A stretch of 25,993 nucleotides of DNA, taken from positions 1-25,993 of the forward strand of contig CAYNWY010000002.1 in NCBI GenBank assembly GCA_964401065.1. Reading direction: 5' to 3'. The stretch is from Candidatus Woesearchaeota archaeon (lineage in GTDB: Archaea > Nanobdellota > Nanobdellia > Pacearchaeales > GW2011-AR1). Position 1 is the stretch's first letter; each line of letters begins with the position of its first letter. Below are positions 5,049 through 8,917 of this stretch, in pieces. A program made the translations under genes and the position numbers. Below the pieces are notes generated by a model. It was not told the origin of the DNA, ran no database searches, and was given only the letters and a program-made list of their open reading frames with translations.

Positions 5049-6323
5049 TTATTCTTCTAACCGTTTATTAAATTCACCTGCAATATTCTCAAGCATTTTC
5101 TCTTTAATCTTTTCCTTTGATTTTGCCCATTCACTATGTCCAAGAACCCAACCAAGCTTTACTAAAGCTGTTTCACTTAGCATATCTTCTAAATAAATAA
5201 CTCCTGCCTCAATTAATTTTCTTCCTGTAGAATAAACCAACCCATCAACCCTTCCATTAATGCATTGGGAAGTTCCGCAAAAAATCATTCCTTTTTCTGA
5301 AAGTTCTTTAATTTTTTTAATCCAGTTAGATGAAGTATGCCCCAAGCCACTTAATTCCAAAACAATTCCTTTGTATTTATTCTTGAAATAATAATCTAAA
5401 ATTTCAGGTGACTGCCCTGGATAAAATTTAATTAGAGCGACTTTTTCTTCAAATTTTGTATTAATTCTAATCTTTTTTCCATTGTTTCTTTTGTTAAAAA
5501 CATCAAGTATTTCTATGCCTTTTTCAGGAAAGACTTTTGCAATAGGCTTTCCATTAATAACCTTGAATGCATCTCTCCTGGAACTATGCATTTTTCTAAT
5601 CTTCACGCCCGGCATTGCATAACAAAAATTATCCTCGGAGTTTGCATGCCCAACTAATACAACTTCTGCAATATCGCTCAATCCAGCAACTTCAGCAGCA
5701 CACTGCAAATTTAAATTTGCATCTGAACTGGCCCTGTCAATGCTTCTCTGAGAATATGTAAGGACAACTGGCTTGTTCAATTTCCCAAGCATGAAACTCA
5801 AAGCACTAGAAGTATAATGTAAGAAATCAGTTCCATGAGTAATTACAACTCCCTGTATATTTGAATCATTCAACAATTTCTCACATGTTTTTGCAATCCT
5901 TTGCCAATCTTTAAAATTCATTTCTTCTGAAAATTTCATAAAAGGAGTTTCTATCTTTAAGATATTAACTTTTTCAAACAACTCAGGGTAAAATTTAAAC
6001 AGACTTTCTGGACTATCTAAGGGGTGAACTCCTCCTGTTTTGGGATTATATCGCGAGGCAATTGTCCCGCCAGTTATAATCATAGCTATGTTTGGTTTTA
6101 ATGAATCTTTCTTAATCTCAAATTTACTTTCCTTTTCACTGAATTTTTTCAATATCTCAACCTTCACAATTTCTTTCTTATTAAAACCAACATTATATCC
6201 GTTGCTTAATTTCAATAGAATAATCCCTTTTTCAGATTCAGGACTCTCAAGAAGAACTCCTTCATAGATTAATTTTCCAAAATGAACTTCAACAAAATCT
6301 CCGGGTTTAGCATGAATTTCCAT
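5049..6323 (-). CDS. gatD: Glu-tRNA(Gln) amidotransferase subunit D
   Basis: N-terminal SH3-like domain (LKLSNGYNVG) plus asparaginase domain: TGGTIASR, HGTD, SQRSIDR, KMHSSRRDAF, GLGH, ETALVKLGW. Confidence 0.95.
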   Translation of the reverse strand: MEIHAKPGDFVEVHFGKLIYEGVLLESPESEKGIILLKLSNGYNVGFNKKEIVKVEILKKFSEKESKFEIKKDSLKPNIAMIITGGTIASRYNPKTGGVHPLDSPESLFKFYPELFEKVNILKIETPFMKFSEEMNFKDWQRIAKTCEKLLNDSNIQGVVITHGTDFLHYTSSALSFMLGKLNKPVVLTYSQRSIDRASSDANLNLQCAAEVAGLSDIAEVVLVGHANSEDNFCYAMPGVKIRKMHSSRRDAFKVINGKPIAKVFPEKGIEILDVFNKRNNGKKIRINTKFEEKVALIKFYPGQSPEILDYYFKNKYKGIVLELSGLGHTSSNWIKKIKELSEKGMIFCGTSQCINGRVDGLVYSTGRKLIEAGVIYLEDMLSETALVKLGWVLGHSEWAKSKEKIKEKMLENIAGEFNKRLEE

Positions 6324-6375
6324 GTTAAGAACAAAAGAATCAACAATTAAAAACTTAATGATATTTAATAAATGA

Positions 6376-6447
6376 TGAGCCTGCCAGGAATCGAACCTAG
6401 ATAAAGCGGGCCGAAACCGCTTATGTTATCCTTTACATCACAGGCCC
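6376..6447 (-). tRNA. tRNA-Arg(TCG), intronless, CCA not encoded
   Basis: Folds by hand: acceptor GGGCCTG/CAGGCTC, D-stem ATGT/ACAT with loop AAAGGATA (A20 Arg identity element), anticodon stem AGCGG/CCGCT with loop TT-TCG-GC, variable TTAT, T-arm CTAGG-TTCGATT-CCTGG, discriminator A. Confidence 0.92.
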
Positions 6448-7188
6448 AATACTATAAGGGTCTAATTTATCATTTAAAATATCTTCTCTTTGACTTAAAC
6501 TAATCTTAGTTGGACAAAAACCAAATTTCCTCCAAACTAAATACCTTGTAAGTTTAACGGGATTTTTCATTCCAATAAGATTCATCCACTTATCAAAACC
6601 ATCAATTCCACTAATTGTTATAATATAATTTCTATTTTCATTAGATTTCTTAGAATCTCTAGAATGATAATTAAAAAGAATATCCAACTCATGAAGTATT
6701 TTAATAACTCCTTCAGCTAAATCTCTAGAAATCGTAACTATTTTTATAGTTGGATAATTATTATAATGCTTATTAAATTTATTAATCCCTTCATAAGACT
6801 TCCTAAATGACAAATTTCCATCTGTATCAAATAATCCTCTTAAAAAGGCTCCATAAATTTTGAAATCTCTGCTTTTTAATATAGATTCAGGAATTTTAAC
6901 AGATTTTGACTTTTTTCCAGTAGGAAAACTCAAACTAATCAGAGCATCCCTAATCTCTTGTTTATAGCTAACAAACCCATAAGACCCTCTAGAAAATAGT
7001 TTTCCCTTGATATCTAAATCAAATACTTGATTAAATAAAGGAATAACATGTGTATCATAATAACCTTTTTCTTCAACGTCTCCACTAATATCTACTTCTC
7101 CCTTATTTCTTTCTCTCAATCTCATGTAACCATCACCAGCATGAATTCCACAAATTTCAGCCAACTCAGGAGTTATCTCTATCATCAT
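6433..7188 (-). CDS. Free-standing double-motif LAGLIDADG (DOD-type) homing endonuclease-like protein
   Basis: Motif 1 AEICGIHAGDG and motif 2 FLRGLFDTDG, both with the acidic catalytic residue. No intein splicing motifs and no flanking intron. The last 15 nt overlap the tRNA. Confidence 0.88.
   Translation of the reverse strand: MMIEITPELAEICGIHAGDGYMRLRERNKGEVDISGDVEEKGYYDTHVIPLFNQVFDLDIKGKLFSRGSYGFVSYKQEIRDALISLSFPTGKKSKSVKIPESILKSRDFKIYGAFLRGLFDTDGNLSFRKSYEGINKFNKHYNNYPTIKIVTISRDLAEGVIKILHELDILFNYHSRDSKKSNENRNYIITISGIDGFDKWMNLIGMKNPVKLTRYLVWRKFGFCPTKISLSQREDILNDKLDPYSIGPVM
6472..6490 (-). promoter_or_regulatory. Putative BRE/TATA promoter for the tRNA, embedded in the LAGLIDADG coding sequence
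   Basis: Minus strand AAGAGAAGAT-A-TTTTAAAT, with the TATA-like octamer 25-32 nt upstream of the tRNA 5' end. Confidence 0.45.
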
Positions 7189-7189
7189 A

Positions 7190-7249
7190 TTTGTAATACA
7201 TATAAGTTTATAAACTTTATTATAAAATAGTATATATTTGTATTACAAA
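7190..7249. promoter_or_regulatory. Divergent promoter region with 11-bp perfect inverted repeat (operator candidate)
   Basis: TTTGTAATACA (7190-7200) and TGTATTACAAA (7239-7249) flank a 12-bp palindrome AGTTTATAAACT (7205-7216) that contains a TATA box. A second TTTATAAA at 7254-7261 precedes the small plus-strand ORF. Confidence 0.65.
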
Positions 7250-7282
7250 AATATTTATAAAGTTTGGAAGACTGAAAAAACT

Positions 7283-7408
7283 ATGACTGGAAAAAACAAG
7301 AAGAAAAATTATCCATATATTTATTTAATTAGAGTTGACAAAGAATTAAAAGAAAAGTTAAAGAAAGCAGGAAGTGGAAGAGTTAGAGAACATCTTAAAA
7401 GAATATAA
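7283..7408 (+). CDS. 41-aa basic protein, ribbon-helix-helix-like (not in the ORF track)
   Basis: Hand translation MTGKNKKKNYPYIYLIRVDKELKEKLKKAGSGRVREHLKRI*. Alternating beta strand followed by two short helices; TATA box 22-29 nt upstream of the ATG. Confidence 0.6.
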   Translation: MTGKNKKKNYPYIYLIRVDKELKEKLKKAGSGRVREHLKRI

Positions 7409-7459
7409 TTCCAACACTTAATTGAATAATTTTAAATACACTCTTTACTCTATTTAATA

Positions 7460-8917
7460 ATGGAAGAAAAAAGATCAGAAGAGGGTTTAACTGTAAAAAA
7501 ACAAGAGGATTTCTCAGAGTGGTTCACCCAAGTTTTGGAAAAAGCAGAATTAATTGATTTAAGATTAGATGTGAAGGGATTTACAGTTATCCGCCCATGG
7601 GCTGCTTTAACAATTGAGAACATGTTTGAATATTTAGAGAAAGAACTACAGAAAAAGGGGCATAAACCAACCTTCATGCCCTCAGTTATACCAAAAGAAA
7701 ATCTAATGAAAGAATCAGAGCATATAAAGGGGTTTACTCCTGAAGTTTTTTGGTTGAAAGATATTGGAGAAAACAAAGAACTTGCCTTGAGACCCACTTC
7801 TGAAACTCTTTACACACCAATGTTTAAATTATGGGTAAGAAGTTACAGGGATTTACCTTTAAAATTATACCAAAGAGGTTCTGTTTTCAGAATGGACACT
7901 AAAGCAACCCGTCCCCTAATCAGGGGGAGAGAATTTATCTGGATTGAGTGCCATGATGCATTTGAGACAAAAGAACAGGCAGAGGCTCAGGTTCAGGAAG
8001 ATATTGACACAACTGAAAAAGTTATGCATCAAATCTATGGAGTTCCATTTCTCCCAATGAAAAGACCAGAGTGGGATAAATTCGCAGGTGCAGAATACAC
8101 AGTTGGTTCAGATTGCTTTATGCCAGATGGAAAATTAATACAACAACCTTCAACTCACCTAATGGGGCAAAAATTCTCAAAAGCATTTGGTGCAACTTTC
8201 AAAAATAAAGAAGAAAAAGAAGAATATCTCTGGACAACAGCTTACGGCCCGGCAGTTTCAAGAATATTAGCTTCTGTAATTGCAACCCATGGAGATGATT
8301 CTGGACTAATCTTACCTTATTCAATCTCCCCCCTACAAGTGATAATCGTACCAATATTCAATGCAGAAAACAAAAATAAAATTCTGAAGAAATCCAAAGA
8401 AATTTTAGATAAATTAGAAAAAGAGAACATAAAAGCAGAAATAGATGAAAGAGAGTATAAACGCCCAGGAGAAAAATATAATATCTGGGAATTAAAAGGG
8501 GTTCCATTCAGGATTGAATTAGGTGAAAAAGAACTGAAGAAAGAAGAGGCAATACTCTTTACTAGAGATACAAAAAAGAGAGAAATTCTCAAACTAAGAG
8601 ATTTAAAGAAAATAAGCAAACTTGGAAAAGAATTTGATATTAGACTAAGGGAAAAAGCAGACAAATTCCTGCACAACAGAATAGTTTCCTGTTCAACCAA
8701 AAAAGAAATAAAAGAAGCCTTATCTGAAGGGAAATTAGCAAGAATAAACTTTTGTTCAACAGACAAACCAGGTATCCCCTGTGCAGAAACTGTTGAAAAA
8801 GAGTTATTAGGAGATGTAAGAGGAACTCTAGCAAACAAAAATGAAAAAGCAAATGGAAAGTGTTTATTTTGTGGAAAACCAGCAACAAAGGTTGTATATA
8901 TTGGTCGAAGCTACTAA
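7460..8917 (+). CDS. proS: Prolyl-tRNA synthetase, archaeal/eukaryotic type
   Basis: FSEWFTQVL, LALRPTSETL, PLIRGREFIWIE, KFAGA, YGPAVSRILA, WELKGVPFRIELG, C-terminal Zn-binding region CLFCG and terminal ..GRSY. Confidence 0.96.
   Translation: MEEKRSEEGLTVKKQEDFSEWFTQVLEKAELIDLRLDVKGFTVIRPWAALTIENMFEYLEKELQKKGHKPTFMPSVIPKENLMKESEHIKGFTPEVFWLKDIGENKELALRPTSETLYTPMFKLWVRSYRDLPLKLYQRGSVFRMDTKATRPLIRGREFIWIECHDAFETKEQAEAQVQEDIDTTEKVMHQIYGVPFLPMKRPEWDKFAGAEYTVGSDCFMPDGKLIQQPSTHLMGQKFSKAFGATFKNKEEKEEYLWTTAYGPAVSRILASVIATHGDDSGLILPYSISPLQVIIVPIFNAENKNKILKKSKEILDKLEKENIKAEIDEREYKRPGEKYNIWELKGVPFRIELGEKELKKEEAILFTRDTKKREILKLRDLKKISKLGKEFDIRLREKADKFLHNRIVSCSTKKEIKEALSEGKLARINFCSTDKPGIPCAETVEKELLGDVRGTLANKNEKANGKCLFCGKPATKVVYIGRSY

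Follow-up and report, generated by a model that had tools for sequence, protein, structure and literature searches.

We describe here a 26-kb contig (25,993 nt, ~30% G+C; hereafter the window, meaning the whole stretch of DNA that was analysed) of an 869-kb, 138-contig DPANN-type archaeal genome, in which a gene for a basic peptide of 41 amino acids (aa) lies divergent from the gene for a free-standing LAGLIDADG endonuclease. In our view the two genes probably make up one mobile homing-endonuclease cassette, in which the peptide would serve as the cassette's own transcription regulator, acting through palindromic boxes in the gap between the genes. The cassette, of ~970 bp, docks directly 5' of tRNA-Arg(TCG) in DPANN archaea. 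A preliminary description of the window had proposed that a ribbon-helix-helix (RHH)-like microprotein represses both itself and the nuclease gene from these boxes; the open reading frame (ORF) that it named, the TATA box of this ORF, the 94-bp gap separating the LAGLIDADG start (7188) from the peptide ATG (7283) and both boxes were all recovered at the same positions (Table 1).

The translation of the small ORF reads MTGKNKKKNYPYIYLIRVDKELKEKLKKAGSGRVREHLKRI. Judged by its substitution pattern, it is a real gene under strong purifying selection, since the proportion of nonsynonymous differences (pN) lies far below that of synonymous differences (pS; means of 0.148 and 0.68, respectively, Nei-Gojobori over 45 pairs), invariant residues are encoded by codons that switch between families (AGA, CGT, CGC and AGG for Arg17; AGT and TCT for Ser31) and the remaining reading frames across the gene are closed by stops. 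The gene had been called unannotated, which holds for its name but not for its presence in public gene calls, where it appears as an unnamed 41-aa product or as a 56-aa product with a TTG start. The longer form can be ruled out, because the sequence upstream of ATG 7283 is unconserved while the length of the spacer is fixed: conservation sets in at exactly this ATG, behind a 21-nt spacer that is constant in length and free in sequence. This onset and the TATA box found at -29 to -22 indicate that the mRNA of the 41-aa gene is probably leaderless.

Homologues of the peptide are found at 63-73% identity in 17 further loci and at 39-54% identity in distant loci. Whole-genome searches of relatives located it in two genomes (G027 and G018) at 71-73% identity, each time divergent from an orthologous LAGLIDADG gene, a scan of GTDB genomes yielded nine peptide loci in metagenome-assembled genomes of Pacearchaeota, Woesearchaeota and Nanoarchaeota, and metagenomes added six more. 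A profile search of 1.84 billion representatives returned only 12 clusters for the family, all of them stand-alone proteins of 41-48 aa after miscalled starts are discounted. Altogether the peptide occurs in ~27 loci: in 24 it is divergent from the LAGLIDADG orthologue (among them the window, G027, G018, L031-L039, L071-L076, L080, L081, L085 and L090), in two it faces a 427-aa protein and in one, on a short contig, it has no partner. By these searches the peptide defines a protein family that is so far without a name and is unrecognised by current models. The most distant homologue, P0016, lies on a 500-bp contig (L077, 1-282) with no nuclease gene within 138 nt upstream and with tRNA-like flanking sequence; a different palindrome, TTGAT-TTT-ATCAA, is placed with the same geometry upstream of its TATA box, and the locus may represent either a remnant or a relative whose specificity has changed.

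The gap between the two genes had been described as holding two inverted boxes. Exact inverted 11-mers (TGTATTACAAA) are indeed present at 7190-7200 (-) and 7239-7249 (+), but they are really parts of direct copies of a module made of a palindrome and a TATA box. A repeat finder reports this direct module as 32 nt long (7187-7218 versus 7234-7265, 81% identity), composed of the palindromic box, 6-7 nt and then TTTATAAA; the two copies can also be read as an inverted pair because each box is its own palindrome (TTTGT-N3-ACAAA). An RNA hairpin formed by the 'inverted' boxes was considered and ruled out for the same reason, direct and inverted identity being equivalent for such boxes, and because the left ATATT is conserved in direct orientation; Rfam gave no family match to the gap region. 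From the window alone the significance of the repeat is modest, 69 of 3000 dinucleotide-shuffled versions of the gap (2.3%) containing an inverted repeat of at least 11 nt; the comparative data lift the boxes far above chance. Among 37 boxes from 20 loci the core G, T, A ... C is invariant (37/37) and the left ATATT nearly so, the neighbouring spacers vary, and the consensus is ATATT-W-GTA-W-TAC-A, followed by the TATA box. An alignment of ten gaps likewise contains two conserved footprints, separated and flanked by variable sequence, one spanning the nuclease start, Box 1 and its TATA box (TATA1), CAT-ATATTWGTAATACA-ATA-GTTTATA, and the other Box 2 and the TATA box of the peptide gene (TATA2), ATATTDGTAWTACWRAAATRTTTATAA.

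The geometry of these elements is equally constant. The nuclease ATG and TATA1 flank Box 1, whose centre is 11 nt upstream of the conserved LAGLIDADG start in all 20 peptide-bearing loci examined, whereas Box 2, which abuts or overlaps the side of TATA2 that carries the B recognition element (BRE), has its centre at -40 from the peptide ATG in 18 of the 20 and is absent in L072 and L078; the positions of TATA1 and TATA2 thereby confirm the placing of the boxes given in the preliminary description. Both promoters share the layout TATA, 21 nt and ATG, which suggests leaderless transcripts. At one locus (L081) a single box and a single TATA box serve both genes, each start codon being 21 nt away; a box plus a TATA box thus forms the basic unit, which is present in the window as a tandem duplicate. 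In the whole genome of 869 kb the extended box has no other credible site, which argues against a host regulon; one further copy, at C1:5576, was discarded as a second genomic site, being inside a coding region and attributable to chance. Taken as sequence features, the boxes are supported as operator-like palindromes at a position where an archaeal repressor would block the nuclease promoter.

Our main argument for regarding the peptide as the binder of the boxes is that, in the loci compared, the box tracks the peptide gene and neither the nuclease gene nor the host. A class-wide search found 11 further tRNA-Arg-docked nuclease orthologues (44-53% identity): in two (L085 and L090) the peptide is accompanied by both boxes, in eight peptide and box are both missing, and the last (L084, G413:C13) has kept Box 1 beside a peptide gene that is down to a 15-codon remnant starting MTKKEK (MTKKEKIWGIHSSIH, then a stop). 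Conversely, the two loci with the 427-aa protein (L078 and L079) have the peptide, with variant boxes (TTTGTAGGACAAA; TTTGTAATGCAAA and TCTGTATCACAAA), opposite this protein, in which no similarity to the 251-aa nuclease is detectable. The 427-aa protein (148-1431, split, in L078 and 115-1398 in L079) contains two hDGG/ADDG motifs with a spacing of ~95 residues and, at its C-terminus, a weak winged-helix signal; its likeness to LAGLIDADG enzymes is one of motif spacing only, for which BLASTP, Pfam and PDB searches gave no confirmation. On a maximum-likelihood tree of the nuclease, the state of the peptide needs three changes, at least two of which are forced by well-supported branches, and the box changes along each time. 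The expectation that the peptide would travel with LAGLIDADG genes (24 of the ~27 loci) and with the boxes (Box 1 in 20/20 examined) was thus borne out, as was that of a conserved peptide under selection, and the conserved palindromes at -11 and -40 were seen only where the peptide occurs. A few peptides with His at position 15 pair with GTAGGAC, GTAATGC and GTATCAC cores, cases too few to use.

An alternative that we consider unlikely is that the boxes are bound by the LAGLIDADG protein itself, in an autoregulation of the I-TevI kind, or by a host factor, and that the peptide is a DNA-bending or target-site homing accessory or an RNA-binding protein. The peptide has no significant RHH match, its strongly basic composition also fits a protein that binds RNA, or DNA without specificity, DNA-binding regulators are known among LAGLIDADG relatives, WhiA for one (a weak WhiA_N match is found here), and the 19-bp palindrome is near the length of a LAGLIDADG site. 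However, the orthologous LAGLIDADG genes without the peptide are also without the box, the box stays with the non-orthologous 427-aa partner, and a single-chain, two-domain LAGLIDADG enzyme is expected on an asymmetric site and not on a perfect short palindrome. As to a host factor, its single target in the genome would lie inside a mobile element, given that the box is found only once and that the cassette moves across host families, which makes such a factor unlikely.

Some of the loci just mentioned have further features of their own. In L084 the peptide remnant is followed by a fragment resembling the 5' end of a tRNA-Arg gene, and this locus may be a decayed cassette with a partial target duplication. 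Peptide-less orthologues (L082, L083, L086-L089 and L092) have G+C-rich motifs, TGTCCA(G/C)TG or GTGTG(C/A), beyond the TATA box, 30-90 nt upstream of the nuclease start; the motifs are sometimes repeated, are conspicuous in these A+T-rich genomes and might represent a different control or boundary element.

That the two genes entered the locus together is indicated by comparison with empty sites. In a GatD-anchored search of 12 same-genus genomes, the order was GatD(-), tRNA-Arg(TCG)(-), ~100 bp and then an HtrA-like protease gene and/or ProRS, and none of the 12 has the nuclease or the peptide in the interval from tRNA-Arg to ProRS. Likeness to the empty sites resumes at 7420 (TAATTGAATAATTTTAAATACAC, ProRS promoter), 11 nt past the peptide stop, and across the compared loci the end of the insertion lies 1-11 nt past this stop codon; on the left side, similarity stops at the 5' end of tRNA-Arg. 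Because the empty sites are without both genes and similarity breaks at both edges, the nuclease and the peptide genes constitute one ~970-bp insertion, which also displaced the native tRNA promoter. The tRNA gene, into which the last 16 nt of the LAGLIDADG gene run (3' overlap), is a docking site and not cargo, because it occupies the same position next to GatD in genomes without the insertion. Of the three-part cassette proposed earlier, the union of nuclease and peptide is therefore upheld, whereas tRNA-Arg(TCG) does not belong to it. The flanks vary among loci (GatD or a major facilitator superfamily gene on the left; protease, ProRS or others on the right), the nuclease tree is incongruent with the host families, and three different lineages of the nuclease occur among the genomes of a single host family, which indicates horizontal movement.

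The nuclease gene itself is intact in the window, with Pfam matches to LAGLIDADG_3 (5.8e-9) and Hom_end (2.3e-5), both above the cut-offs, and the motifs CGIHAGDGY and FLRGLFDTDG, with the catalytic GDG and DTDG, are kept in 14 orthologues. As expected of a free-standing LAGLIDADG enzyme, two motifs with acidic residues are thus present in an intact ORF, and filled and empty alleles exist at one site. At one locus, L035, the nuclease is frameshifted and the peptide intact. Nearly all LAGLIDADG paralogues of the group (L018-L030) immediately precede a tRNA gene on the same strand (Arg, Leu, Ile, His or Thr) and often end inside it, so that tRNA docking is a habit of the family and not a one-off; the window's own genome has two such paralogues, one of 333 aa with its end in tRNA-Thr(GGT) and one of 230 aa with its end in tRNA-Leu(TAG) (C28:6579-7638 and C82:1133-1873).

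The fold of the peptide was approached by AlphaFold2 (AF2) monomer models and profile comparisons. With an alignment of 18 sequences that includes distant members, AF2 gives a non-helical segment (residues 1-19), a helix (20-29), the invariant Gly30 and a second helix (31-40), with a predicted local distance difference test score (pLDDT) of 82.8, and of 88 for residues 11-20; this predicted order of strand, helix, Gly and helix would fit the topology of an RHH monomer. In distant members the strand follows the pattern x-[YF]-x-[IL]-R-[VI], with conserved hydrophobic residues at Y/F14, I/L16 and V/I18 and an invariant R17, and the intervening positions are variable and often polar, as in Arc or CopG (I/T/V/Q/R/F at 13 and L/M/I/V/H/Q at 15). 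The alternation of core-facing hydrophobic and DNA-facing polar residues that marks an RHH strand can thus be read from the sequence alignment, and one member, P0013, has a weak RHH_3 match (E 0.069) in the same register as the hhalign comparison described below.

Several observations weigh against the reading of the peptide as an RHH-type regulator of the nuclease. The predicted fold depends on the alignment, as AF2 with 12 close sequences returns one long helix. The presumed DNA-facing strand residues of the main clade are hydrophobic (I13 and L15). Pfam gives no gathering-score RHH match for the window peptide, the best among 20 members being the RHH_3 match just mentioned (13.6 bits versus a cut-off of 21.6), and hhalign against an assembled 7-member RHH alignment gives a probability of 2% (P 0.023), with the register as expected. 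Foldseek with the peptide model found 0 matches in PDB and BFVD (viral), for which the query is too short, and a PDB profile search with the peptide retrieved only designed helical hairpins. Both predicted helices are about one turn shorter than those of known RHH proteins, and the loop reads G-S/T instead of the usual RHH G-x-S/T. Finally, the co-occurrence of box and peptide amounts to only 2-3 independent events, and sister lineages have the nuclease without the regulator, so regulation is not obligatory. Weighing these points, an RHH fold for the 41-aa peptide is plausible from the models, and we think it likely that the peptide works like an RHH repressor; whether it is a member of the RHH superfamily proper (MetJ/Arc, Pfam clan CL0057) is evenly balanced. 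Of the RHH likeness proposed at the outset, the AF2 topology and the alternating strand pattern thus remain, and a significant match in Pfam, PDB, hhalign or Foldseek searches does not.

A canonical-looking small RHH-type ORF (75 aa) occurs elsewhere in the window's own genome (C1:7114-7501), followed after 1 nt by a RelE-like ORF of at least 52 aa, and the two form an ordinary toxin-antitoxin pair; this RHH-type ORF is one row of the 7-member comparison alignment.

The working of the cassette can be pictured as follows. The peptide would form a minimal RHH-type dimer, each subunit having a basic N-terminal arm, the strand x-Y-x-I-R-V, a 10-residue helix, Gly30 and a second 10-residue helix, and this dimer, or a dimer of dimers, would bind the palindromes (ATATT-W-GTA-W-TAC-A...). 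Bound to Box 1, between TATA1 and the leaderless nuclease start, it would block RNA polymerase recruitment or promoter opening and so turn the nuclease off; a site between the TATA box and the start site is the classic position of an archaeal repressor, which there excludes RNA polymerase. Bound to Box 2, it would touch the BRE and TATA box of its own promoter and exert feedback, more likely of a repressing kind. Because Box 2 is missing in two of the 20 loci and Box 1 is universal, autoregulation looks dispensable, and the core function seems to lie in controlling the nuclease. Once resident in a genome, the cassette would keep its nuclease silent, and on entry into a new genome without the regulator the nuclease promoter would fire first; we infer this timing of arrival and then silence from the parallels offered by Arc in IS605 and by restriction-modification controller proteins.

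A reading that seems to us quite improbable has the box-bound peptide working chiefly as an activator or direction switch, recruiting TBP/TFB from the -40 box to its own promoter in the style of Ptr2 or TFB-RF1, with control of the nuclease being secondary. A site at -40, just upstream of BRE and TATA, is a typical archaeal activator position, and binding in L081, with its one box and one TATA box for both genes, could bias the direction of the shared promoter; the universal site, however, is Box 1, in the classic repressor position at -11, and the -40 box has been lost in two loci in which the peptide is intact. We give very little credence to the peptide being an antitoxin-like partner, one that would touch the nuclease directly and so neutralise it, as RHH antitoxins of type II toxin-antitoxin systems do with their toxins, operator binding being a side function: a paralogous LAGLIDADG gene with an AbrB/MazE-type 43-aa ORF overlapping its start by ATGA (L018) and the RHH/RelE-like pair in the window's own genome are in its favour, but the genes here are divergent with separate TATA boxes and do not form an operon with an upstream co-transcribed antitoxin, the 41 aa end with helix B and have no C-terminal toxin-binding tail beyond the predicted fold, and L035 has an intact peptide beside a frameshifted nuclease gene.

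A bolder form of the favoured reading, that of the peptide as the cassette's transcription regulator, is more speculative, and we regard it as doubtful: the peptide would be the smallest natural RHH repressor yet, with a core of ~30 residues, and a direction switch on a bidirectional leaderless archaeal promoter. In the minimal form represented by L081, binding at the lone palindrome would block leftward transcription of the nuclease and occupy the BRE of the regulator's rightward promoter. If true, such a switch would amount to a 'fire once on arrival, then go silent' timer for a homing cassette, and this timer could explain how intact homing nucleases persist in DPANN genomes of 0.6-1 Mb.

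Table 1. Features at the cassette locus in the window, with positions counted from its first nucleotide
Feature	Position	Strand	Basis or remark
GatD gene	5049-6323	-	left neighbour of tRNA-Arg(TCG)
tRNA-Arg(TCG), host docking site	6374-6448	-	ARAGORN; Rfam 54 bits
Free-standing double-motif LAGLIDADG endonuclease gene, 251 aa, putative regulated partner	6433-7188	-	Pfam
Box 1, operator-like palindrome ATATTTGTA-A-TACATATAA	7187-7205	.	13-mer 7190-7202, core GTAATAC 7193-7199
TATA1 (TTTATAAA), inferred LAGLIDADG promoter	7207-7214	-	21 nt to second ATG (7185)
Box 2, second palindrome copy ATATTTGTA-T-TACAAAAAT	7234-7252	.	13-mer 7237-7249, core GTATTAC 7240-7246
TATA2 (TTTATAAA), inferred promoter of the 41-aa gene	7254-7261	+	21 nt to ATG 7283
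Gene for 41-aa basic protein (net charge ~+10), candidate mini-RHH regulator	7283-7408	+	ATG 7283, TAA 7406-7408
Right edge of the ~970-bp insertion	7409-7419	.	comparison with empty-site loci L048, L050 and L052-L055
ProRS gene	7460-8917	+	right neighbour of the 41-aa ORF

The neighbourhood of the cassette and its paralogues offers some further observations. In most relatives, a gene for an HtrA-like trypsin protease (~285 aa, with an N-terminal membrane helix) lies between the cassette or tRNA and ProRS; it is missing from the window (7409-7459) and from several same-genus genomes, as compared with L036, L037, L046, L047 and L049, and is cut to 115 aa in G020 (L046). At L018 (G052:C45), the 43-aa AbrB/MazE-type ORF (1373-1504) is upstream of the LAGLIDADG paralogue (1501-2241) on the same strand, in a toxin-antitoxin-like layout; with a Pfam MazE_antitoxin score of 25.4 bits (cut-off 24.7), it is, by annotation, a different small DNA-binding partner of a related nuclease. 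The tRNA-Ile-docked paralogues L023, L024, L026 and L029 share AGAGCATTATTTTGATATG immediately upstream of and including the start codon (element 20 nt before the start), an element that in this comparison is specific to one nuclease lineage.

If the favoured reading holds, it adds an archaeal LAGLIDADG case to an emerging rule by which selfish nucleases bring along a miniature repressor of their own, a rule for which Arc in bacterial IS605 has so far been the one demonstrated example, and a candidate regulator of this kind would help us to understand how DPANN genomes, extremely reduced as they are, tolerate intact homing endonuclease genes. Being so small that it can be made by chemical synthesis, the candidate repressor, together with a 13-19-bp operator and a 94-bp bidirectional leaderless promoter, would also provide a compact test bed for archaeal transcription. 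Full-text literature searches returned no account of DPANN LAGLIDADG genes located at tRNA genes, nor of a small gene accompanying them.

The closest known system is that of the Arc repressors of IS605-family transposons, in which Arc, an RHH protein, has been shown experimentally to bind divergent promoters and to repress tnpB and tnpA; the same preprint records arc genes beside homing endonuclease genes as well (bioRxiv 10.64898/2026.09.24.754181; Moon, Zedaveinyte, Wiegand, Sternberg). Both systems have a tiny element-encoded DNA-binding protein (here predicted) beside a selfish nuclease gene, with sites inside the divergent promoter region and a proposed repression of the nuclease and of the regulator itself (here from sequence alone). 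As in IS605, regulator and nuclease behave as one mobile unit (empty sites, the 24 two-gene loci and the nuclease tree), and conserved sites overlap the nuclease promoter, here as a sequence feature. They differ in that the promoters here are archaeal, with TATA/BRE elements and probably leaderless, whereas those of IS605 have -35/-10 elements, in the partner, which is a free-standing LAGLIDADG enzyme in place of TnpB or TnpA, and in the protein, which at 41 aa has helices about one turn shorter and is unrecognised as Arc/RHH by Pfam or hhalign.

The concept is also like that of the C proteins of restriction-modification systems (e.g. C.PvuII and C.AhdI), small dimeric DNA-binding proteins that act on palindromic boxes at their own and the nuclease promoter and time the nuclease after entry into a new cell. 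In contrast to the peptide, to which they have no homology, C proteins are helix-turn-helix proteins, are co-transcribed with the nuclease, act as activators first and work with bacterial sigma-70. The smallest characterised RHH repressors are CopG of pMV158 (45 aa) and Arc and Mnt of phage P22, with which the peptide shares, by prediction, a basic N-terminus, an alternating strand, a helix, a Gly turn and a second helix, as well as short, in this case putative, palindromic operators overlapping promoters. The peptide differs from them in a folded part of only ~30 residues, in the loop (G-S/T versus G-x-S/T/N) and in having no significant similarity. A free-standing nuclease gene beside a tRNA gene has a counterpart in SegB of phage T4 (in the tRNA cluster) and in the other Seg and the Mob genes, which lie between host genes and spread through cleavage of the empty allele, as the cassette would; I-TevI limits its own expression via an operator in its promoter (PMC2988022). 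These phage enzymes are of the GIY-YIG/HNH type and are regulated by the nuclease itself or by RNA structure, whereas the element described here is chromosomal, resides in DPANN archaea and has a separate candidate repressor gene. A tiny RHH repressor guarding a selfish nuclease is therefore a known theme, to which the cassette would add archaeal promoters, a LAGLIDADG partner and a hitherto unrecognised 41-aa family.

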